A program made the position numbers and the translations under genes. This document shows, in pieces, positions 18,942-49,991 of a stretch of 64,000 bases of DNA. The DNA is taken from assembly GCA_000004985.1 (NCBI GenBank), contig GG738874.1. One strand, given 5' to 3'. Numbering within the stretch: the stretch's first letter is position 1; each line of letters starts with the position of its first letter. The notes below the pieces were generated by a model. That model did not search any database and was not told the origin of the DNA. It was given only the letters and a program-made list of their open reading frames with translations. Source of the DNA: Naegleria gruberi. Lineage: Eukaryota.

Positions 18942-20011
18942 TTAATCTTTCTTTTCTTTTCTTTCAATAAATTCACAACACAAAATGAACTTTAAAATTC
19001 TGAGAACGAATACTAAAATTACAATAGCAATCCACAAACCAAGTGATGCCAAATATCCAACAATATACTTGGTTGGATAGTATTCACAATCTTTGTAACT
19101 GTAATTGAATCCATCAGCAGACTTTTCAATTTCAAACAAACCAACATTACCACCAAAATCACCTTGAATTGATTTAACTGTAAATTCTTGAGCTCCTTCC
19201 TTGTGTGTATATTTACAACCAAAGTGATCATGACCATTGAAAATATATTTTGGTTTGAGTTGAGTAAGGATAACTTGTGATGTCTTTGGAGTTAAAAAGT
19301 TTTGCTCAATTGNNNNNNNNNNNNNNNNNNNNNNNNNNNNNNNNNNNNNNNNNNNNNNNNNNCCATACTGTTAATGGTTACAGCCAAAACCTTCCTATTT
19401 CCATTTTCATAAATGATATCTTTTCTATTTTGAACTCCAAAACTAGCAATAAATCTTTGAATTCTAAAGAAATTAGCTTCAAAACCATAACCAATATCAT
19501 GATTACCAGTTAAATTAACCAAATATGGGAAGTTTAAATTACGTAAATCAGAAGAACCTCTCTCTTTTACCATTCTTTGTTCTTCATGTAAATCTCCACT
19601 TCTCATCTTGAATATTCTATTCACAAAACCAAACATTCCAGAAAAGATTGAATTAAATCTATCAACTCTCAAATAAAATTCCTGATTAGAAACGTGTTGA
19701 GATGAGAATAAATCACCCAACATGTAAATTGCATCCGGTCTCAACAAGTAATGAATATTTTGGAATACCAATTTAAAATAATAATCGTTAAAGTAATTAT
19801 TGAGCAATCCATAATTTCCCTGATGATAAACTTTTGTATCTCCTTCCATTTGTGGATCCGCAATCATGGCAATTCTTCTTGAATTACTTTTTGACCAATG
19901 ACAACTCAATGGTGAAAAAGCCATATAACTTGTCATGTACATTAGAGACAAGCAATAAATTAAAGAAACAATCAGGATAAATTTAAAGCATCCCGAAGTT
20001 GTTGTTGACAT
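18942..20011 (-). CDS. Metallophosphoesterase of the MPPE1/CDC1 (PGAP5-like) type, interrupted by a 50-N assembly gap
   Basis: Blocks IAMIADPQMEGD, YMLGDLFS, LTGNHDIGYG and, past the gap, YIFNGHDHFGCKY followed by a C-terminal transmembrane segment. The reading frame differs on the two sides of the N run, which is expected if the gap length is arbitrary. Confidence 0.6.
19313..19362. other. Assembly gap (50 N)
   Basis: A literal run of n in the sequence. Confidence 0.95.
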
Positions 20012-25739: not shown

Positions 25740-26853
25740 TCTTCTTCTTTTGTTGAACATTGATGAAAGCATGATCTGGATGCTTCCAACCTAATAAGCC
25801 TCTCCAAATCCACTTGTACAAGTACGGCAACACAAGATATGGCTGATGACATCAATATGACAATTAAATATTAATAATAATTATCATCATACAGGAAGAA
25901 AGAATTTAAATATTAAATTATTGTTAATAATACACTTACCACAGAGATCAAGCACCAATAAGACCAAATCTCATGGAAAACACCAATACTAACCGAGACA
26001 ACCAAACTAATTAACCATCCACTCAAAACACCAATTCCTAACACTCTATTGGAGATGAACCAATCCTTATCATCATGAACTCTAAAGAAGTGAGGCAATA
26101 CTGTAATAAGCAACCAAGTTCCCCAGTGAGGCAAATAACCCCACAGTTGATGATATGGGAACATCCCTATTATCATTTCAATGATCCAAGAAGTAATAAG
26201 AAGTTATGATAAATTTGGAATCTTAGTAAAACCAATTAATTTGAATAATACTTACAGTACAAGTGATTTGGACCTTGATAGGAACACATTGATGATCCAA
26301 CATTTTGAATTGGAATATTATTCACCCTAGATTCAGTTCCATAACCATCGGAAGTAATTTCAACAGATTTTGGAGAGGTACCAAACTTTGTTAATAATTC
26401 ATTGGCACTCATATGATTAGTATTTGGGCCATGTCCCATCATTTGATTGTAACCCATATACAAGGCAATTGTAGAAATAATAAGACAAATCAGGGATGCA
26501 ACAATGGCAAATCTAAAGACCGATCTAGATTTTAAAGTATGGTTAAGACACCAATAGTTTTGAACCAATGGTTGAATCCAAACTAAAAAGTGAGCAACAA
26601 TGGTTAAATTCTTATTACTTTCACTATTACAGGAATCGACTAAACCATAGTAATATTGGAAAAATTGGAGTGCTTCCATGAGAGCATAAGTCAAGTAGAG
26701 GAACACTTGAGAAAGTTGAGCAACTTTCGATTTAGCAGAAGGCAATCTTCTCAACTGGTCCATGGTCATGATAAAACCAAGACATGAGAAGGTAAACGAG
26801 CTTTTCATAGACCAACACATTTTTTCTTTTATTGAAGTAATAAGCATAATCAT
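25740..26853 (-). CDS. Multi-pass membrane protein in 3 or more exons; family not recognised
   Basis: Hydrophobic ORF segments lie at 26853-26236 and 26176-25913, with a further in-frame piece near 25850-25740. They are separated by GT...AG intervals. Confidence 0.35.
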
Positions 26854-28854: not shown

Positions 28855-29964
28855 ATGTTCAGGTTTTTGTTGATCTTGACTCTTTTCCTCGTCATCATCC
28901 AACAAGCTTTACTTGTTTCAGCTGATTCTTCTTCCATTTCGTCTATCAGTTTCGTCCCAACAAGAGAAGAAACTCTCAAAGAATACACCTTTCCAACACA
29001 ACAACAACCAACATCATCATCCAACACACCACCATTCTTCACTCTTTCACCAACTTCCCAACAACAATGCTCCTGTTCTCAATGTTATTGCAATAATGGT
29101 GGATCATGTCCAAAATCAATTCCAGCTCTTGGCTTTACAATTCTTGCAGCAGAGGAAAATTGTGGCAACAGAAATCAAGTTCCAAGTATTGGTCTCATCA
29201 ATATTCAATCTACATCCGATAGTAATGGATTTAAATACTATCTTGTCGATGAGAATAATAAGAATAAGGCAATGAATCTTCAATCATTTCAGTATTCATC
29301 TTATAAGAGTGAAGATAGAGCAATGACATGTGTTACTGATAATTTGGCACCTGTTAGATATCCTTCAACATTGCCAGGAAAAGCATATTTACTTGTATCG
29401 AGTACAAATTTAGTATTGAATACTGAAGTGAGATATAATATTCAAATGTCATGTGCAGTGCCAGAAGCCAAAACTGTTAAAGTTACTGCTGTGAGTCGTG
29501 ATGGTTCAAAGTATTATGTTGGTAAAAAGATGTCATTTAGATTTGAATTCAAAAATGTTTATGACAATATTGACACTTGGCAGAAAGGAACTTTGAGTTT
29601 TGGTGGATTTACTGGACAAGTCAATCAAGGAGTGGGTAATCTAGATTTTACACCATCTAGTGAGGGTTCTATTTCTCTATCAGTTCTTTATACTCCAGAT
29701 ACTTCTGTTTATGGAAGTGCAAATACCTATAATACTCCTACCATTCAAGTTTCTCAAGCTCCTGTTCCAGATGCAGTTTGGTCTTTATGGGATTGGATTA
29801 TTAGTAATCAGAGGAATGCAATTTTTGCAATTATCATTTTGTGTGGTATTGTAATTGGTGTCGTATTGACATGTTGCATTTGTACATGTATTATTTGTAG
29901 AAGAAGAAGAAATAGAGCTAATAGTGAGGAGAGAGGAATTAAATTGCAAGATGAGGAGGCATAA
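28855..29964 (+). CDS. Type I membrane glycoprotein, Ser/Thr/Cys-rich
   Basis: 369-aa ORF with a signal peptide, a mucin-like S/T/Q region, one C-terminal transmembrane segment (IFAIIILCGIVIGVVLTCCICTCII) and a short basic cytoplasmic tail. Confidence 0.5.
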   Translation: MFRFLLILTLFLVIIQQALLVSADSSSISSISFVPTREETLKEYTFPTQQQPTSSSNTPPFFTLSPTSQQQCSCSQCYCNNGGSCPKSIPALGFTILAAEENCGNRNQVPSIGLINIQSTSDSNGFKYYLVDENNKNKAMNLQSFQYSSYKSEDRAMTCVTDNLAPVRYPSTLPGKAYLLVSSTNLVLNTEVRYNIQMSCAVPEAKTVKVTAVSRDGSKYYVGKKMSFRFEFKNVYDNIDTWQKGTLSFGGFTGQVNQGVGNLDFTPSSEGSISLSVLYTPDTSVYGSANTYNTPTIQVSQAPVPDAVWSLWDWIISNQRNAIFAIIILCGIVIGVVLTCCICTCIICRRRRNRANSEERGIKLQDEEA

Positions 29965-30093
29965 TAATATGTAGGATGAAATAAAGATATCTATTCGAAT
30001 GTATCTTTGAGATTGTGTTGAACTATTAATAAGTTAAACTTTGACCAAGTTCAATAGTTCTTTACAAAGTTCAAAAAAAAAAACACAAAACGA

Positions 30094-30330
30094 ATGCCTC
30101 AACAATTATTTATTAAAACCTTGACCGGAAAGACACTCTCTGTTGTAGTTGAATCACATGATACAGTTGAGAATATGAAATTTCAACTTGAAGAAAATGA
30201 GGGAATTTGCTGGGATGCTCAACGATTAATTTGGTTAGGAAAGGAGTTGGAGCATGGAGTACCGGTTAGGGATATTAATTTTAGCAAAGAAACTACCTTG
30301 CATTTGGTTTTATCTCTGTGGGGTGGTTAA
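30094..30330 (+). CDS. Divergent ubiquitin-like protein of 78 aa ending LSLWGG-stop
   Basis: [78 protein letters not shown] aligns with ubiquitin from end to end. L8, the I44/G47/K48 context and H68 are kept. R72 and R74 are replaced by S and W. Confidence 0.7.
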
Positions 30331-30426
30331 AATGTTGGTGACAATTTTCTATTCGAAACCTTTCCTCCATGAACTTGTTCTTTGTTGTAAACCAATAAAA
30401 AAAATAGCAAACACATCCCATGGTAA

Positions 30427-30786: not shown

Positions 30787-31452
30787 ATGTTGAATTTGTA
30801 TAAAAAAATGAGTGAATTAGATACAGAGCCGGTAATGATGCCACTGCTCACTCCAATCGGGGAATGTGATTTTGTGATAGAGAAGAGTAAATTGGGGATG
30901 AAGATTATTAATTTATTAGCAGATTTTTCAGAGAGTTTTGTGTATGGAGGATTTGTGAGGGATTTTCTTGTTCGGAGGGAAAAGTTTAATGATTTGGATT
31001 TATTTATTAAAAATTCAAATATTGGTGATGGTGATGATATGGAAAATAATCATAGAGATTCGAAAATTCTAAAAATTAGAAATGAATTTGAGAATAGACT
31101 GAGAGATTGTGAAATGGAAATTGTTTCAATGAAGAATAATAGAGAAACAGTTGACTACTTAATTAAATTTGAAGGGGATTTATTGGAATTGAATGTAATT
31201 TATGAGGATATTGAGAATGATGTTCCAGATTTTGATGTAAATAATTTAAAATTTCAAAATGGAAACATTTCTCAAAGAATTCCTATGGAAAATTGTACAG
31301 TAAATGGAATAGTGGAAAATATTATGAAGAAACAGTGTATTTTATTGGATGAAACATTGGTGAAAGATGAAACTAATTACTACATTAGAAGGAGAATTAA
31401 AAAGATGCAAAAGAAGGGCTGGTTGGTAATGAACATTCCAAACACTAATTAG
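30787..31452 (+). CDS. Minimal class-II (CCA-adding / poly(A)-polymerase head-type) nucleotidyltransferase-like protein, 221 aa
   Basis: FVYGGFVRDFLVRREKFNDLDLFI matches the GGxVRDxLLG...KDxDxx catalytic motif. About 80 aa downstream, PDFDVNNLKF resembles the RDFTINAL motif B. The neck, body and tail domains are absent. Confidence 0.5.
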   Translation: MLNLYKKMSELDTEPVMMPLLTPIGECDFVIEKSKLGMKIINLLADFSESFVYGGFVRDFLVRREKFNDLDLFIKNSNIGDGDDMENNHRDSKILKIRNEFENRLRDCEMEIVSMKNNRETVDYLIKFEGDLLELNVIYEDIENDVPDFDVNNLKFQNGNISQRIPMENCTVNGIVENIMKKQCILLDETLVKDETNYYIRRRIKKMQKKGWLVMNIPNTN

Positions 31453-31867
31453 AGAGATTGGAAAGAGTGATCTCCTCAAACTAATGTGGTTAGCAATTTA
31501 TTCTTTGACAATTATTTACCATCAAATTGTGTCAAACCAAACAAAACACCTTCAATTTAAAAGCCTTCTAAAAGTACTGTGTCAATTCAATATTAATCAA
31601 CTCTATTTTCAATGAAAACAAATGGTATTTCTTGATGTAAAATTTTGTAATTGTTATTTGAATGGAAAGACAGCTTCCGATTTCCGTTGTTGTAACCAAA
31701 TCTTACTGCCACCTTATTAAAACACGTGTTTAAAACATTGTTAGGTGCAACATTGAGATGAACATTTATTCGATTACTTTGAAGAAATTCAAAAGTTCCC
31801 AAAACTAATTTAAAAATTCATTATTGACTAAAAAAAATAAACACCAAGTTCCCATTCTGAAAAAAAA

Positions 31868-32812
31868 ATGCCAGAAAATAGTATTGATAGCACTCGTCTT
31901 GTTACCCTTCTCTTGGATGACTTTAATGATGAGAACAAGAATAATTATTTATTTTCCAAATTGAAGGAAACAATGCAGAGAAAACTTTTATTGTCAACCG
32001 AGAAATGGCTCCACTCTGTTGTCATTGACATTAATGGAAATTTTGATCGTTTCATTACTGATATTCATCACCCGAATCATTCCTTGTTGTGTTTTAGTCC
32101 AAGAGCTCTCAAATTTCACACTGAAAACAATGAAGCTGTTATCAAAAGATATCATCACAAGACAGGAGATCAATGGATTCATCCACAGCATGGTGTTTTA
32201 TTCGAAGGAGGGTATTTAAGTAATTCTTCAGTTCTGTATCCTCCAGTTGAGTTATTTAATCCAACTGGATTTACTGTATTATTGAGGGCATTTGCTGAGT
32301 CAACTGATAGAGGAGTAATAATCATGTTTGGACGAGGATACAGATGGTTTGGTATTGATCCATTTGGAATTAGTTTGAGCAATGGTGAAAAACATTTCGA
32401 GTTTGCAAATCAATTGAAATTAAGACAGTGGAATGATGTGTGGGTTTCGTATAATAATGTACAATCTCCTGGCACATTTAATGAATCATGTCGTGTCTTT
32501 ACTCACAAGAATTCGAATACAAAGAAGGAAATATTTTGCATTGTGAATGGAAATGAATACCAATTTGAAGTTCCAATCGATAATAGGGTTCTTTCTCTAA
32601 CAGATAATTATTATATAGAAGATGAAATGGGAATGGAATTTATTGATTATTCATGTGCTAATTGCTTTACAGGGTTTTTCTCCAGTTTAGTTTTATTCAA
32701 TCAAAGTTGTAATAGTTTTGATGACTTGAAATTGGTTGCCTCAAACTTTTTGGAAAATCATTCCAAACCAACTGAAACCTATCAAGAAGTATTAAAAGAT
32801 AAATCCAACTAA
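31868..32812 (+). CDS. Hypothetical protein; possible concanavalin-A-like / LamG beta-sandwich
   Basis: 314-aa ORF. The pattern FTVLLRAFAESTDRGVIIMFG...WNDVWVSYNN resembles LamG/pentraxin strands. This is weak. Confidence 0.35.
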   Translation: MPENSIDSTRLVTLLLDDFNDENKNNYLFSKLKETMQRKLLLSTEKWLHSVVIDINGNFDRFITDIHHPNHSLLCFSPRALKFHTENNEAVIKRYHHKTGDQWIHPQHGVLFEGGYLSNSSVLYPPVELFNPTGFTVLLRAFAESTDRGVIIMFGRGYRWFGIDPFGISLSNGEKHFEFANQLKLRQWNDVWVSYNNVQSPGTFNESCRVFTHKNSNTKKEIFCIVNGNEYQFEVPIDNRVLSLTDNYYIEDEMGMEFIDYSCANCFTGFFSSLVLFNQSCNSFDDLKLVASNFLENHSKPTETYQEVLKDKSN

Positions 32813-33442: not shown

Positions 33443-36400
33443 TTAAAGAATGAAAGAAATAAACAATAAGGCAATAGCCAAGATTAAATTGAAAAGAGGA
33501 GTAGTTAAAGGAGAGTTGTTAATTCTTGCTGATTGTTGGGGAATGGTGATTGAACTGGATACTGAAATCAGTTTTTCACAATTGGTTCCAATGAAACCAA
33601 TTGAACATTTGCATGTATCTGTTGAAATGCATTGACCATTTCCTGAACAAACATTTGAAGTATCATTTGACAATTTTCCATAACATTGAATGAGTTTACA
33701 TTCAGGCCCATACCAATCCTTATCACATTTGCACAAGTTAAAATCCATACATTGCCCATGTCCAGAACAAACATTTGGCGTGTCATTTGACAATTTTCCA
33801 AAACATTGAATGAGTTCACAATCAGGGCCATACCAATCCTTATTGCATTGACATGTATCTGTTGAAATACATTGACCATGTCCAGAACAAACATTTGAGG
33901 TATCTGACAATTTTCCAAAACATTGAATAAGTTTACAATCAGGGCCATACCAATCCTTATTGCATTGACATGTATCTGTTGAAATACATTGCCCATTTCC
34001 TGAACAAACATTTGACGTATCATTTGACAATTTTCCAAAACATTGAAATAGCTTACAATCAGGCCCATACCAATCCTTATCACATTTACACAAGTTAAAA
34101 TCCATACATTGCCCATGTCCAGAACAACCCGATGAATTAGAGATACCAAAGCAGATAGGAGTATTGCATGAAGAACCAACCCAAGTCGAATTACATTCAC
34201 ACAAATCTTTTCCGATACATTGACCATGAGAATTGCAAGTGAGTGGATCATTACTTTGAATTCCAAAACAAGAGAAGTATTCACAATTGGCTCCACTAAA
34301 ACCATTATCACAAGTACACTTTTCATAATCTAAACATTTACCCCTCGATTGACAAACAGCAGAATCATTACTTAACAAACCATTACATGTGGTAATGTTG
34401 CAAGTTTCTCCAATCCAACCAATTTCACATTCACACAAATTGACATCAACACAAGCACCTTGGGATGGTCCACCACAAGAATTATTACCAAACTTTCCAT
34501 AACAGATTGGTGTGCATATTAAGGAATTTTCACTCAGACGAAAACCATCTTCTTCACAGTATGGAACTGCCACCCTAACCAAGCCATTACGAAAGATACC
34601 AGTATCTGAATATATTAAATTTCCTTGTTCATCAATGAAGATAGAGTCTGGGCATGAAACAATAGTTTCATTTCCTTTCACATTGTCTCTCATCTCAAAA
34701 CCTGTCTGTCCATTACCAATAATTGTTGAGATATTTCCATCCAATGCTGAAATCTTTCTTATAGCATGGGCATCACAATCAGGAAAAATTACATCACCAA
34801 CTTTGGTTGTAATAACAGATGCAGGATTAATAATAGATGCCAAAAGAGCAGAACCACCATCTCCAGTTGATAGCACAATTCCATTTCCTGTAACAGCATG
34901 AATGATACCGTCTTTGCTTATTCTTCTAATTCTGTTATTTCCTATATCAGTGAAATAAATATCTCCATCCACACTCACTGTAATACCATATGGATTATTG
35001 AGTTTTGCCTTAATTGCCTCAATTTCATCATTGTTATAACCAGCATATATACCACCAGCAATAGTAGAAATAATTCCTGTATCATAAGAAATCTTTCTAA
35101 TATTATTAGCATAACAAGAATCTGTAAAATAAATGTCACCTCTCCATGATACTACCAATCTGTTTGGACATAAATAGGCTTCAGATGCCAATCCACCATC
35201 GCCCAAACCACCAGCTAGAGTACTAATAATTCCATTGGTAGATACTGTTCTGATATAAGCTCTGTCAATTATATATAAATCTCCATTTGGTCCAACCTTT
35301 GAGAATGATGGAACTACACTAGTCATGTTGGCAAGAACATCATTTTCGATATCAGTAGTATTTCCGTTTCCAGCAATAGTTGAAATAACACCATTAGAAA
35401 TCTTTCTTAATCTAGAATTATCTGAAATGTAAATGTCACCATTTTGATCTACTGAAACACTTGTTGGCTTATTGAGTTGTGCATCAGTTGCAAGAATATC
35501 ATCTCCATTGTAACCTTCAACTCCAGTACCACAAATAATTGAATTTTGTAAAGTGGAAAGTGTAATATTGTTCAAAGTGGAATCTGATAGTAATACTAAA
35601 AGATACAATCCATCATTTGTAAGTGCAACATCTAAAGGAGATGCTACATTTTGTACAATGTCAATTATGCCACTTGTCAAATTAACAACTCTAATTGCAT
35701 TATTACCATTACAAGCAACATATAACAATTCTTCATCAGAAGAGAAAGCCATACCATTAGGATTTGAAATTGCTGCCTCGATAGCATTACCTCCATCTCC
35801 ACTATAATCATCAACCCCAGTTCCACAAATTGTTGTGATATTTCCATTGAGTGATATCTTTTGAACTCGATGAGTATTTGTGGAAAAGTAAATTTCACCC
35901 ATCTTGCTAACAAGAACTCTAACTGGATTACCTATCATTGAATCAATAGCTCTTACGTTTTCTCCACTGTATCCTGCAACACCAGGTTTACCAGCAATGG
36001 TTGTTATAATTCCCAAAGTTGAAATCTTTCTAATACATGAGTTTAAACTGTCAGCAATAATCATTTCACTAGTGCTTGGTAAAAAGTCAATTCCAGTTGC
36101 TCTACTGATAACTGAATATTTGGCATTGTATCCATCACCTCCAAATTGACCATTGGTTCCAGCAACTCTTATCAATGTGCCATTCCAAAATAGTTTGTAA
36201 ATTGAATTACTGAATGAAACAAATAACTCTTTTGTAATTGGTGAAACGGAAAGTCCAATAATGCTCTGGATTGATTCGAGCGGATTAATAACGTTAGGGA
36301 CAATAGTAGAGTCATCTAGACGGTTACCGTTACCTGCAATAGTTGAAACAATTTGATTCTTGTCAACCTTTCTAATTCTGCAATCATGTGAAATATATGT

Positions 36401-37618
36401 AATGCCATCAATTGAAACAACTTGACTAATATAGCCCAAAGCTGCTTTTGATGCTGGCAACCCATCTCCTCCATATACATTTGTATTACCAATTACTGTT
36501 TCAATAATTCCAGTTTGTTTTGAAATTTTACGTATCTTCAAATTTCCAGTGTCAGTAACATAAACATCTCCATTTTTAGAAACTGAGATTCCTGTTGGAT
36601 AAGCAAATTTGGCATTGATTGCGGGACCACCATCACCATAATTACCACTATCCATACTTCCACCAATTGTAGAAATGTAACCGCTGCTATTGACCATTCT
36701 AATAACGTTATTATTATCAATAATGTATAATGTACCATCAGGAGTGGAAACGACACCAGTTGGAAAATTCAATGCTGCATTGGTTGCCAAGCCTCCATCA
36801 CCAGAGTATCCTACATCTCCATTACCTGCGATTGTTGAAATAATTGCAGTGCTGCCATCAATCTTTCTAATTCTATGATTAAGTGAATCACAAAAGTAAA
36901 TGTCACCATTAGTGGAATTGACAAATAATCCTGTTGGTGTGTTTATCCTGGCAGTGAGTGCTGGTCTATTATCACCTCCAAAATTATTGATACCATTACC
37001 ACAGATTGTTACAACTGCACCATTTGAGATCTTTCTAATTCTGTGATTATTCCTATCAGCAAAGATTACATCAGAATTTATCAAACCAATACCAAAAGGA
37101 CGTGAAACTTTTGATAACTTAGCTTGTCCATCATTAAATCCTGAAGAACCAGGAATGCCAGCAATTACACTTATCTTTCCACTCTTCATGTCAATTTTTC
37201 TCACCAAATCATTGTAATAATCTGAAAAGTAAATATCACCAGTTTCTTTTGATACTACAATGCCTCTAGGTTCATTAATTTGAGCAAGCAGAGCCAATTG
37301 ATTTGCGCCACCATCACTATAACTACCTGGTAATTCACCTGTACCAGCAATCGCTTTTATCACATTACCAGATGTTGCTTTAATGGTATTAGCATCTGTG
37401 AAAACTAGTTCATCTTGTTCATTGAAGAATAATGCCAAGGGACTGTCGAGGGAAAGAGATGTCAAGTTATAACCATCACCCAGTAAGTTTCCACCTGCAA
37501 ATGTACTGGTTGTGTATTTCACAGGTTTCAAGTTGACCGTTGTCTTGCACAACACCATGTTGTTGGTTAACAACAACAATATTAAACAAACAAAGACATT
37601 GAACCAGAGTGCTGTCAT
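33443..37618 (-). CDS. Large secreted or surface protein: signal peptide, many NHL-type beta-propeller repeats, a block of EGF / Dicty-type cysteine-rich repeats and a C-terminal hydrophobic anchor
   Basis: 1391-aa ORF. N-terminal signal MTALWFNVFVCLILLLL. NHL repeats recur (GDIYFSD, RIRKI, NGIAV). The cysteine module is C.G.G.C.....C.C...W.G..C. The C-terminal hydrophobic tail is LILAIALLFISFIL. Confidence 0.8.
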   Translation of the reverse strand: MTALWFNVFVCLILLLLTNNMVLCKTTVNLKPVKYTTSTFAGGNLLGDGYNLTSLSLDSPLALFFNEQDELVFTDANTIKATSGNVIKAIAGTGELPGSYSDGGANQLALLAQINEPRGIVVSKETGDIYFSDYYNDLVRKIDMKSGKISVIAGIPGSSGFNDGQAKLSKVSRPFGIGLINSDVIFADRNNHRIRKISNGAVVTICGNGINNFGGDNRPALTARINTPTGLFVNSTNGDIYFCDSLNHRIRKIDGSTAIISTIAGNGDVGYSGDGGLATNAALNFPTGVVSTPDGTLYIIDNNNVIRMVNSSGYISTIGGSMDSGNYGDGGPAINAKFAYPTGISVSKNGDVYVTDTGNLKIRKISKQTGIIETVIGNTNVYGGDGLPASKAALGYISQVVSIDGITYISHDCRIRKVDKNQIVSTIAGNGNRLDDSTIVPNVINPLESIQSIIGLSVSPITKELFVSFSNSIYKLFWNGTLIRVAGTNGQFGGDGYNAKYSVISRATGIDFLPSTSEMIIADSLNSCIRKISTLGIITTIAGKPGVAGYSGENVRAIDSMIGNPVRVLVSKMGEIYFSTNTHRVQKISLNGNITTICGTGVDDYSGDGGNAIEAAISNPNGMAFSSDEELLYVACNGNNAIRVVNLTSGIIDIVQNVASPLDVALTNDGLYLLVLLSDSTLNNITLSTLQNSIICGTGVEGYNGDDILATDAQLNKPTSVSVDQNGDIYISDNSRLRKISNGVISTIAGNGNTTDIENDVLANMTSVVPSFSKVGPNGDLYIIDRAYIRTVSTNGIISTLAGGLGDGGLASEAYLCPNRLVVSWRGDIYFTDSCYANNIRKISYDTGIISTIAGGIYAGYNNDEIEAIKAKLNNPYGITVSVDGDIYFTDIGNNRIRRISKDGIIHAVTGNGIVLSTGDGGSALLASIINPASVITTKVGDVIFPDCDAHAIRKISALDGNISTIIGNGQTGFEMRDNVKGNETIVSCPDSIFIDEQGNLIYSDTGIFRNGLVRVAVPYCEEDGFRLSENSLICTPICYGKFGNNSCGGPSQGACVDVNLCECEIGWIGETCNITTCNGLLSNDSAVCQSRGKCLDYEKCTCDNGFSGANCEYFSCFGIQSNDPLTCNSHGQCIGKDLCECNSTWVGSSCNTPICFGISNSSGCSGHGQCMDFNLCKCDKDWYGPDCKLFQCFGKLSNDTSNVCSGNGQCISTDTCQCNKDWYGPDCKLIQCFGKLSDTSNVCSGHGQCISTDTCQCNKDWYGPDCELIQCFGKLSNDTPNVCSGHGQCMDFNLCKCDKDWYGPECKLIQCYGKLSNDTSNVCSGNGQCISTDTCKCSIGFIGTNCEKLISVSSSITIPQQSARINNSPLTTPLFNLILAIALLFISFIL
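33630..34130. repeat. Tandem repeats of about 120 nt, near-identical at the nucleotide level, encoding EGF-like modules (CFGKLSNDTSNVCSGHGQCISTDTCQCNKDWYGPDCKLIQ)
   Basis: 4-5 consecutive copies of ...ccaaaacattgaat.agtt.acaatcagggccataccaatccttattgcattgacatgtatctgttgaaatacattg... are visible by eye. Confidence 0.7.
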
Positions 37619-49199: not shown

Positions 49200-49991
49200 N
49201 NNNNNNNNNNNNNNNNNNNNNNNNNNNNNNNNNNNNNNNNNNNNNNNNNNNNNNNNNNNNNNNNNNNNNNNNNNNNNNNNNNNNNNNNNNNNNNNNNNNN
49301 NNNNNNNNNNNNNNNNNNNNNNNNNNNNNNNNNNNNNNNNNNNNNNNNNNNNNNNNNNNNNNNNNNNNNNNNNNNNNNNNNNNNNNNNNNNNNNNNNNNN
49401 NNNNNNNNNNNNNNNNNNNNNNNNNNNNNNNNNNNNNNNNNNNNNNNNNNNNNNNNNNNNNNNNNNNNNNNNNNNNNNNNNNNNNNNNNNNNNNNNNNNN
49501 NNNNNNNNNNNNNNNNNNNNNNNNNNNNNNNNNNNNNNNNNNNNNNNNNNNNNNNNNNNNNNNNNNNNNNNNNNNNNNNNNNNNNNNNNNNNNNNNNNNN
49601 NNNNNNNNNNNNNNNNNNNNNNNNNNNNNNNNNNNNNNNNNNNNNNNNNNNNNNNNNNNNNNNNNNNNNNNNNNNNNNNNNNNNNNNNNNNNNNNNNNNN
49701 NNNNNNNNNNNNNNNNNNNNNNNNNNNNNNNNNNNNNNNNNNNNNNNNNNNNNNNNNNNNNNNNNNNNNNNNNNNNNNNNNNNNNNNNNNNNNNNNNNNN
49801 NNNNNNNNNNNNNNNNNNNNNNNNNNNNNNNNNNNNNNNNNNNNNNNNNNNNNNNNNNNNNNNNNNNNNNNNNNNNNNNNNNNNNNNNNNNNNNNNNNNN
49901 NNNNNNNNNNNNNNNNNNNNNNNNNNNNNNNNNNNNNNNNNNNNNNNNNNNNNNNNNNNNNNNNNNNNNNNNNNNNNNNNNNNNNNNNNNN
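49200..49991. other. Assembly gap (792 N)
   Basis: A literal run of n. Two convergent genes both run into it. Confidence 0.95.

Follow-up and report, generated by a model that had tools for sequence, protein, structure and literature searches.

The gene NAEGRDRAFT_80093, located in the 64-kb stretch of Naegleria gruberi DNA considered here (the window), is a real and complete gene for a stand-alone nucleotidyltransferase (NTase) domain of the Pol-beta superfamily. Its product consists of a head followed by a short C-terminal helical cap, without neck, body, or tail, and can be assigned with high confidence to the class-II type of NTase domain, the type found in CCA-adding enzymes and poly(A) polymerases (PAPs). 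On balance, and with modest confidence, we favor the view that this head-only protein is an RNA 3′-end nucleotidyltransferase, probably a weak one, and that its adjacency to two genes for ubiquitin-like (Ubl) proteins is coincidental. The three genes lie on one strand, within 1.4 kb:

30094..30330, + strand: Ubl1 (unannotated), ubiquitin family PF00240 (E 1e-15), 78 amino acids, ending in GG followed by the stop codon
30427..30663, + strand: Ubl2 (NAEGRDRAFT_34389), ubiquitin family PF00240 (E 2e-18), 78 amino acids, ending in GG followed by the stop codon
30787..31452, + strand: mini-NTase gene, single exon, 221 amino acids counted from the first ATG

An earlier note on this DNA, made from the letters alone, had described the 221-aa reading frame and its start 124 bp beyond the Ubl2 stop codon on the same strand, and both statements proved exact, the last base of that stop codon being 30663. 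The reading frame is 100% identical to N. gruberi NAEGRDRAFT_80093 (EFC43272 / XP_002676016). The GenBank model of this gene is likewise a single exon, begins at the second ATG (30808), and yields a protein of 214 aa, which UniProt (D2VII5) labels automatically as “Poly A polymerase head domain-containing protein”. Translation ends at a TAG codon, and a 415-bp spacer separates the gene from the next open reading frame (ORF; 31868–32812). A regular expression for the class-II motif A has a single match in the window translated in all six frames, compared with 0.005 per shuffle, and the longest stop-free stretch among 200 shuffles of the window was 202 codons, shorter than the 221 codons of the NTase ORF. 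These shuffle tests, together with the existence of real homologs (down to E 1e-14), exclude chance as the origin of the ORF and its motif A. No mention of NAEGRDRAFT_80093 was found in any paper.

The assignment of the protein to an NTase family begins with its motifs, which lie within the gene as follows:

30946..30999, + strand: motif A, G54 G55 x x R58 D59 ... D69 x D71, comprising the NTP-binding turn and two metal-binding aspartates of strand 2
31192..31194, + strand: codon AAT for N136 in strand 5, at the position of the third acid, one A-to-G transition from GAT (Asp)
31228..31248, + strand: motif B-like DFDVNNL (D148–L154), counterpart of DFTINA in the class-II RRDFTINA
31393..31422, + strand: C-terminal helix motif R203-x-x-K-M-x-x-K-G-W212, family-specific and the part that matches DUF5769

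Residues 51–74 read FVYGGFVRDFLVRREKFNDLDLFI and fit the class-II signature GGxVRDxL-x7-DxD recognized in the earlier note, with G54, G55, R58, D59, D69, and D71 in the expected places; the motif-A segment proper, YGGFVRD...DLD, spans residues 53–71. Conservation was counted in an alignment of 64 family sequences, in which G54, G55, R58, D59, and D71 are invariant (64/64) and position 69 is occupied by 62 aspartates and two glutamates. Family-profile searches align this region with the GGxVRD...DiD of class-II enzymes in the PDB, so that the DxD on which the proposed assignment depended does align with the catalytic aspartates of these enzymes, D71 being invariant. In class-II enzymes, motif B has the sequence RRDFTINA. 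Its counterpart here, which had been noticed about 80 residues farther on, is PDFDVNNLKF at residues 147–156, 77 residues past D71. The D-F-x-V-N core is conserved in the family while the RR pair gives way to variable residues, and within the core D148 is invariant (64/64), N152 nearly so (59/64), and L154 is kept in 61 of the 64 sequences. The C-terminal motif is similarly constant, with R203 present in 63 of 63 sequences and W212 in 59 of 64; its helix takes the place of the motif-D helix of class-II enzymes but has no ED dyad. Absence of this dyad (EDxxR) and of the motif-B RR pair means that neither nucleotide specificity nor substrate can be read from the sequence. At the sequence level, the family can be defined by the combination of hGGxhRD-x8-10-DhD, an acid in strand 5, DFDVNNL, and the C-terminal RxxKMxxKGW helix.

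Placement of the family in the class-II branch draws on profile matches to the PDB, on one member that is recognized by an established domain model, and on a predicted structure. When a core-only family profile was compared with all PDB sequences, 16 matches were obtained at E ≤ 1 and all 16 were class-II CCA/PAP chains, led by the Arabidopsis CCA-adding enzyme (9kma, E 9e-4); the full-length family profile also matched RING chains, by way of fused fingers. A single-sequence search of the PDB with NAEGRDRAFT_80093 returned nothing but chance TRPA1 matches. The PolyA_pol head model PF01743 scores the Naegleria protein at 17.0 bits (E 0.008), below its 23-bit gathering cutoff, and gives weak matches in 10 of 13 family members. 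The same model is passed, at 36.3 bits against the cutoff of 23, by a 164-aa stand-alone member encoded on a 215-kb low-GC metagenome contig (L019:5995-6489), which hhalign relates to the family profile with a probability of 98.9% (E 2e-17). An AlphaFold2 model of NAEGRDRAFT_80093, computed from an input alignment of only 24 sequences, reached a pLDDT of 82.3 and a pTM of 0.79. Its strands succeed one another as 1-2-3-4-5-6-7, consistent with the 3-4-5-2-1-6-7 sheet of a class-II head fold. That sheet, in which two extra strands are added to the Pol-beta core, distinguishes class-II heads (PMC11646218). Foldseek comparison of the model gave TM scores of 0.49–0.51 over ~200 columns with class-II enzymes, versus ~0.3 over ~120 columns with TUTases, Pol mu, OAS1, and CdnC. 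Profile, domain-model, and structural evidence thus agree with the CCA/PAP head geometry that had been proposed from the motifs.

The earlier note had left room for a match either to PF01743 or to the CD-NTase/Mab21 group. The first expectation did not hold as stated, PF01743 staying below threshold for this protein, and the second failed. NTases of the CD-NTase/cGAS/OAS type (Mab21-type) have the Pol-beta-fold core in common with NAEGRDRAFT_80093, but cGAS/OAS/CdnE-type folds fit the AlphaFold2 model clearly worse than class-II heads do. Neither the NTase nor either of the two ORFs downstream of it matched anything in NCBIfam or PADLOC. CD-NTase membership was rejected, since there was no Mab21, CD-NTase, or PADLOC match and the structural scores fell below those of class-II heads.

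Canonical class-II CCA-adding enzymes and PAPs possess a neck, body, tail, and tRNA anchor, all of which NAEGRDRAFT_80093 lacks; they also carry the motif-B RR pair and an EDxxR motif D, whereas the Naegleria protein has neither and bears RxxKMxxKGW. A TRNT1-type enzyme combines motif D with neck, body, and tail, and the present protein ends at residue 221. Since head-type motifs alone are present, the gene could derive from the canonical CCA-adding enzyme of Naegleria, as a pseudogene or as a fragment whose other exons lie elsewhere, but several observations leave this with a practically negligible probability. Homologs on unrelated contigs stop 5–15 residues past the conserved RxxKMxxKGW, and because these independent homologs end at the same C-terminal motif that precedes the Naegleria stop codon, the protein is considered complete. 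Structural alignments with real CCA enzymes show an identity of only 10–18%. Neither the 415-bp spacer nor the next ORF (31868–32812, NAEGRDRAFT_68694) shows any resemblance to a neck or body domain; for the 314-aa product of that ORF, searches of Pfam and the PDB gave no relative, so it cannot be called a substitute neck or body, or a partner. With the single-exon GenBank model added to these points, the TRNT1-fragment reading is effectively refuted. The suggestion that the protein is unlikely to be TRNT1, made because neck, body, and tail are missing, holds on these independent grounds.

Relatives of NAEGRDRAFT_80093 are few. When 1.84 billion representative proteins were searched exhaustively with phmmer, only 13 true relatives were recovered, the closest being P0002, a protein of 180 aa with 39% identity. 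Profile searches enlarge the family to about 60 members, and a profile scan of metagenomes yielded 10 loci. The family is sparse, and its members lie on protist-like and rotifer contigs. Giant viruses probably belong to its range as well, as judged from two virus-like contigs and from structural matches: the best matches in BFVD are proteins of Cedratvirus, Klosneuvirus, Hokovirus, Fadolivirus, Pithovirus, and Moumouvirus, several of which carry RING, F-box, or ankyrin annotation. BFVD also returned podophage proteins of ~200 aa annotated as “Poly A polymerase head domain.”

The domains to which the NTase is joined in its relatives fall into a small number of recurring types. Three proteins (P0024, P0027, and P0028) combine it with an OB_NTP_bind domain of the DEAH type and a KH domain. 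In a single protein of at least 1909 aa (L005), Macro, DEAD, Helicase_C, and NTase domains occur together; the eukaryote-like contig that encodes it carries a stand-alone NTase copy as well. On a 310-kb eukaryote-like contig (L027), a same-strand run comprises Ank, Helicase_C, OB_NTP_bind, and NTase+PARP. A large group of proteins, from metagenomes and from Adineta and Rotaria, both bdelloid rotifers, has the NTase fused to a PARP catalytic domain. Four members (P0010, P0012, P0014, and P0020) have a C-terminal RING finger, and the locus of P0010 is a gene-dense virus-like contig with genes for eIF-1a, cupredoxin, F-box, RING, and UFD1 proteins. CCA enzymes do not have such partners, and the links of the family to PARP, Macro, helicase, and RING domains are reminiscent of the antiviral gene sets of animals. 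The presence of PARP, Macro, and RING among the partners suggests a part in conflicts of the host-virus or RNA-surveillance kind.

Part of this family has been filed under DUF5769 (PF19073), an overlap that the earlier note overlooked. NAEGRDRAFT_80093 scores 20.4 bits with this model, short of the gathering cutoff of 26.1, with its best stretch at residues 194–221, while the closest homolog, P0002, passes (29.3 versus 26.1) in a region that runs from strand 5 through motif B to the helix after it. DUF5769 models the C-terminal half of the NTase domain, from strand 5 to the C-terminus. Because it begins after motif A, the model does not reveal that the domain is an NTase. No paper was found that mentions DUF5769.

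A feature of the Naegleria copy that had also been overlooked is the residue at the third catalytic position. The family strand “vDvV” aligns to “diDiV” of S. pombe cca1, and the acid column in this strand corresponds to what we take to be E79 of the Bacillus structure, the third metal-binding carboxylate there. This strand-5 column holds 56 aspartates and six glutamates among the 64 sequences; the acid is absent only in NAEGRDRAFT_80093 (N136) and in P0026 (Q). The Naegleria protein accordingly departs from the class-II pattern of a third catalytic carboxylate on strand 5, and N136 aside it retains all of the family-invariant residues. Two residues before N136, and facing the same side of the strand, is a glutamate (E134), but the family does not conserve that position. 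Loss of the third carboxylate usually cripples catalysis in Pol-beta-type enzymes. Given this replacement, the protein is probably a weak enzyme, or one dependent on altered metal binding or on a partner; the N136 copy may have little activity, a different metal dependence, or no activity.

Complete loss of catalysis, with retention of the domain as a nucleotide- or RNA-end-binding module or adaptor, e.g., a regulator or decoy, is somewhat unlikely but has the asparagine itself to recommend it, as 62 of the 64 members keep D or E at the position. A binding role would also suffice for relatives and giant-virus proteins in which the domain is fused to RING, F-box, or ankyrin domains, although the fused relatives themselves retain the full acidic triad. 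Moreover, the GG, RD, and DxD elements, D148, N152, and R203 are all kept in the Naegleria protein, which is unexpected after a long period without catalysis, and asparagine is still able to ligate Mg2+, with E134 on the same strand face. That the protein is an RNA-end transferase with at least residual activity, the preferred reading, is a tentative proposal, to which we give slightly less than even credence.

In the proposed mechanism, the GG turn and D69/D71 would bind NTP-Mg2+, D148 and N152 would touch the ribose, and the NMP would be moved without a template onto the 3′-OH of an RNA, as in tailing or end repair. Lacking body and tail, NAEGRDRAFT_80093 has no known means of holding tRNA. 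RNA targeting would not be intrinsic to the protein and might be provided in trans or, in relatives, by the fused DEAH/DEAD helicase and KH modules. The choice of RNA as acceptor comes mainly from three independent helicase associations among relatives, and the fusion-based proposals draw on distant relatives with 20–30% identity to NAEGRDRAFT_80093 and not on that protein itself. An active NTase that modifies a protein or small molecule, as do LnuA, ANT(2″), and MNT, is quite unlikely: class-II RNA enzymes fit the model better and over more residues, the sequence motifs of the family are those of class II, and the recurrent helicase and KH fusions indicate nucleic acid.

The position of the gene directly downstream of Ubl1 and Ubl2, which are 56% identical to each other, had led to the speculation that the NTase and the GG-terminated Ubl proteins are functionally linked. 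They might form an immune-type module similar to CBASS or OAS/ISG15, for example a signaling-nucleotide synthase under the control of Ubl conjugation. Three same-strand genes within so short a distance would fit such a module, as would the RING fingers of some family members and the PARP, Macro, and helicase partners that recall animal antiviral proteins. However, Naegleria genes are densely packed, which makes adjacency alone weak evidence. The analogy is also loose from the outset, because conjugation in CBASS involves the CD-NTase as the attached moiety, without a separate Ubl, and because the relation between OAS and ISG15 is one of co-induction only. With Ubl1, Ubl2, and human ubiquitin as tblastn queries, no ubiquitin-like ORF was present at any of the 26 loci of NTase homologs that were fetched. 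Among them are that of the closest homolog on its eukaryote-like contig (L001) and the longer L002, L003, L005, L006, and L019, few of the 26 having long flanks. A CBASS-like module would show adjacent E1/E2 (Cap2-like) and JAB (Cap3-like) genes as well as conserved co-occurrence, and the 26 loci give no sign of the latter. A Pfam scan of essentially all window ORFs of at least 150 aa, a set from which intron-split genes could escape, detected no E1, E2, JAB, HORMA, or effector genes. The missing PADLOC and Mab21 matches and the lower scores of CD-NTase/OAS folds relative to class-II heads point the same way.

An upstream sequence element also bears on the relationship among these genes. The window has only three copies of an A-run followed by AAACAC, which immediately precede Ubl1, Ubl2, and the 314-aa ORF; none lies upstream of the NTase gene that is between them. 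This pattern was derived after the fact and can serve only as a hint; if anything, its distribution separates the NTase from its neighbors. With no Ubl ORF at the homologous loci, no conjugation genes among the scanned ORFs, and a common upstream element that skips the NTase, the speculated functional link found no support, and a dedicated immune-type module comprising the three genes is very unlikely. The position of the NTase beside the Ubl genes is most likely coincidental, as the favored reading holds. A loose tie to ubiquitination exists at the level of the family, in view of the RING fingers in relatives and the RING and F-box annotation of giant-virus structural matches.

The other ORFs covered by the Pfam scan of the window are ordinary chromosomal genes. 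Among their products are cyclin, longin-SNARE, GDSL lipase, TPR nucleoporin, kinase, Sac1, LRR, and ribosomal L18A proteins, along with a teneurin-like NHL/EGF protein, an SDR, an ammonium transporter, RRM and RGS proteins, and an SNF2-GRF helicase. A low-GC, ORF-rich region at 48–50 kb was rejected as a feature, as it is an assembly gap of 792 N.

Stand-alone class-II heads have precedents outside this family. S. pneumoniae NP_344798.1 (PDB 2la3) is a stand-alone “CCA-adding enzyme head domain” protein, and podophages (LKD16, phiAS7, Cd1, and others) encode stand-alone proteins of ~200 aa annotated as “Poly A polymerase head domain / nucleotidyltransferase.” These heads differ from the Naegleria protein in being bacterial or phage proteins with 10–15% identity to it, and they were missed by sequence searches from NAEGRDRAFT_80093. 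Compact stand-alone NTases that act on tRNA 3′ ends are known among the MenT toxins (PMC7450476, PMC10435456, PMC11162799). Toxins of the MenT/TglT type (DUF1814) are good structural matches to NAEGRDRAFT_80093 but constitute a different sequence family, without the GGxVRD or DFDVN motifs, and belong to bacterial toxin-antitoxin systems, whereas the Naegleria gene has no evident antitoxin-like partner.

Because public databases already list the gene as a “PolyA polymerase head” and stand-alone heads have these precedents, the Naegleria gene is not new as an object. For this gene, the analysis is mostly a clarification, establishing a real head-only class-II NTase whose catalytic triad is degenerate and for which no tie to the Ubl genes could be demonstrated. 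No description of a head-only class-II family with its own C-terminal motif and these fusion architectures was found in the literature. This uncharacterized family, half of which Pfam lists as DUF5769, emerges as a minimal NTase of the CCA/PAP type, which links DUF5769 with PF01743. If its members do tail or repair RNA ends in host-virus conflict, they would represent a new enzyme class for RNA-based defense and counter-defense in eukaryotes, and RNA-end tailing or repair by such proteins would offer a simple model for the minimal portion of a CCA-adding enzyme that suffices to transfer nucleotides. The most far-reaching version, in which the family is a new RNA-end-modifying conflict effector of eukaryotes and giant viruses, deployed in helicase-NTase-PARP, Macro-helicase-NTase, and NTase-RING proteins as a class-II-derived counterpart of OAS/cGAS, and the Naegleria copy with its Ubl pair a primitive antiviral module, is highly improbable. 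As a minor observation, a scan of IMG/VR gave just 34-residue motif-A matches, on contigs of 46–49% GC.

Relatives of the 221-aa stand-alone nucleotidyltransferase head (mini-NTase; 30787-31452, +) occur in varied contexts at the following fetched loci.

L005:10001-11188, P0013, a stand-alone mini-NTase on a eukaryote-like metagenome contig
L005:15700-21188, Macro-helicase-NTase protein on the same contig
L027:2952-9086, run of ORFs on one strand encoding Ank, coiled coil, Helicase_C, OB_NTP_bind (weak) and NTase+PARP
L021:1932-2204, +, divergent mini-NTase match
L021:2827-3297, -, divergent mini-NTase match

The L005 helicase protein, which lies about 4.5 kb downstream of P0013, combines Macro, DEAD and Helicase_C domains in at least 1909 aa, and its C-terminus is a second mini-NTase domain. 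Between the two, on the opposite strand, is a 1449-aa ORF with no match in a Pfam scan. The L027 ORF run, located on a eukaryote-like contig of 310 kb, is probably a single gene split by introns, and NTase+PARP proteins related to the one it encodes are found in Adineta vaga and Rotaria. The two matches of L021, a metagenome contig of 65% GC, are on opposite strands within 1.4 kb.

Features flanking the mini-NTase gene in the window are as follows.

30073-30086, +, A-run + AAACAC element upstream of the Ubl1 ATG
30094-30330, +, Ubl1, a 78-aa ubiquitin-family ORF, GG-terminated
30397-30414, +, A-run + AAACAC element upstream of the ATG of Ubl2, the second ubiquitin-family ORF
31830-31844, +, A-run + AAACAC element upstream of the 314-aa ORF ATG
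31868-32812, +, NAEGRDRAFT_68694, the 314-aa ORF, without a Pfam or PDB relative

An identity look-up did not find the exact Ubl1 sequence in the protein collection. The N. gruberi gene set thus appears to lack an annotation for it, since GenBank numbering passes directly from EFC43270 (369-aa ORF, 28855-29964) to EFC43271 (Ubl2), with no accession between them. The A-run + AAACAC element occurs just three times in the whole 64 kb, about 10-30 bp from each of the three ATGs, a statistic that is circular because the pattern was taken from these very sequences; the same 64-kb search found none upstream of the mini-NTase gene, which lies between Ubl2 and the 314-aa ORF. Pfam and PDB searches gave no relative of NAEGRDRAFT_68694, the middle of which (FTVLLRAF...GVIIMFG...WNDVWVSYN) resembles, by eye, a ConA/LamG-type beta-sandwich. 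At locus L002, an NTase-RING gene adjoins a 2991-aa Laminin_G_3 protein, a parallel to this LamG-like appearance that is probably coincidental.

Other features of the window are listed here.

19313-19362, assembly gap, run of 50 N
26236-26853, -, 205-aa ORF with Pfam DUF5765 (42.6 bits, passing the cutoff of 25)
33443-37618, -, teneurin-like protein of 1391 aa in a single ORF, with teneurin-type NHL + EGF domains
49200-49991, assembly gap, run of 792 N

The 792-N gap accounts for a local fall in GC to 0.21, and an overlapping ORF cluster at 48.6-50.5 kb was rejected as its artefact. Giant-virus proteomes may be the source of both the DUF5765 model and that of DUF5769, which overlaps the C-terminal half of the mini-NTase domain; if so, this would hint at virus-related genes dispersed across the region around 26236-26853. 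The Pfam accession numbers of the two families are close together. The 1391-aa protein matched TEN_NHL (E 3e-58) and EGF_Teneurin (E 1e-34) in a Pfam scan and is unusual for a heterolobosean, as this architecture is mostly discussed for animals and bacteria.
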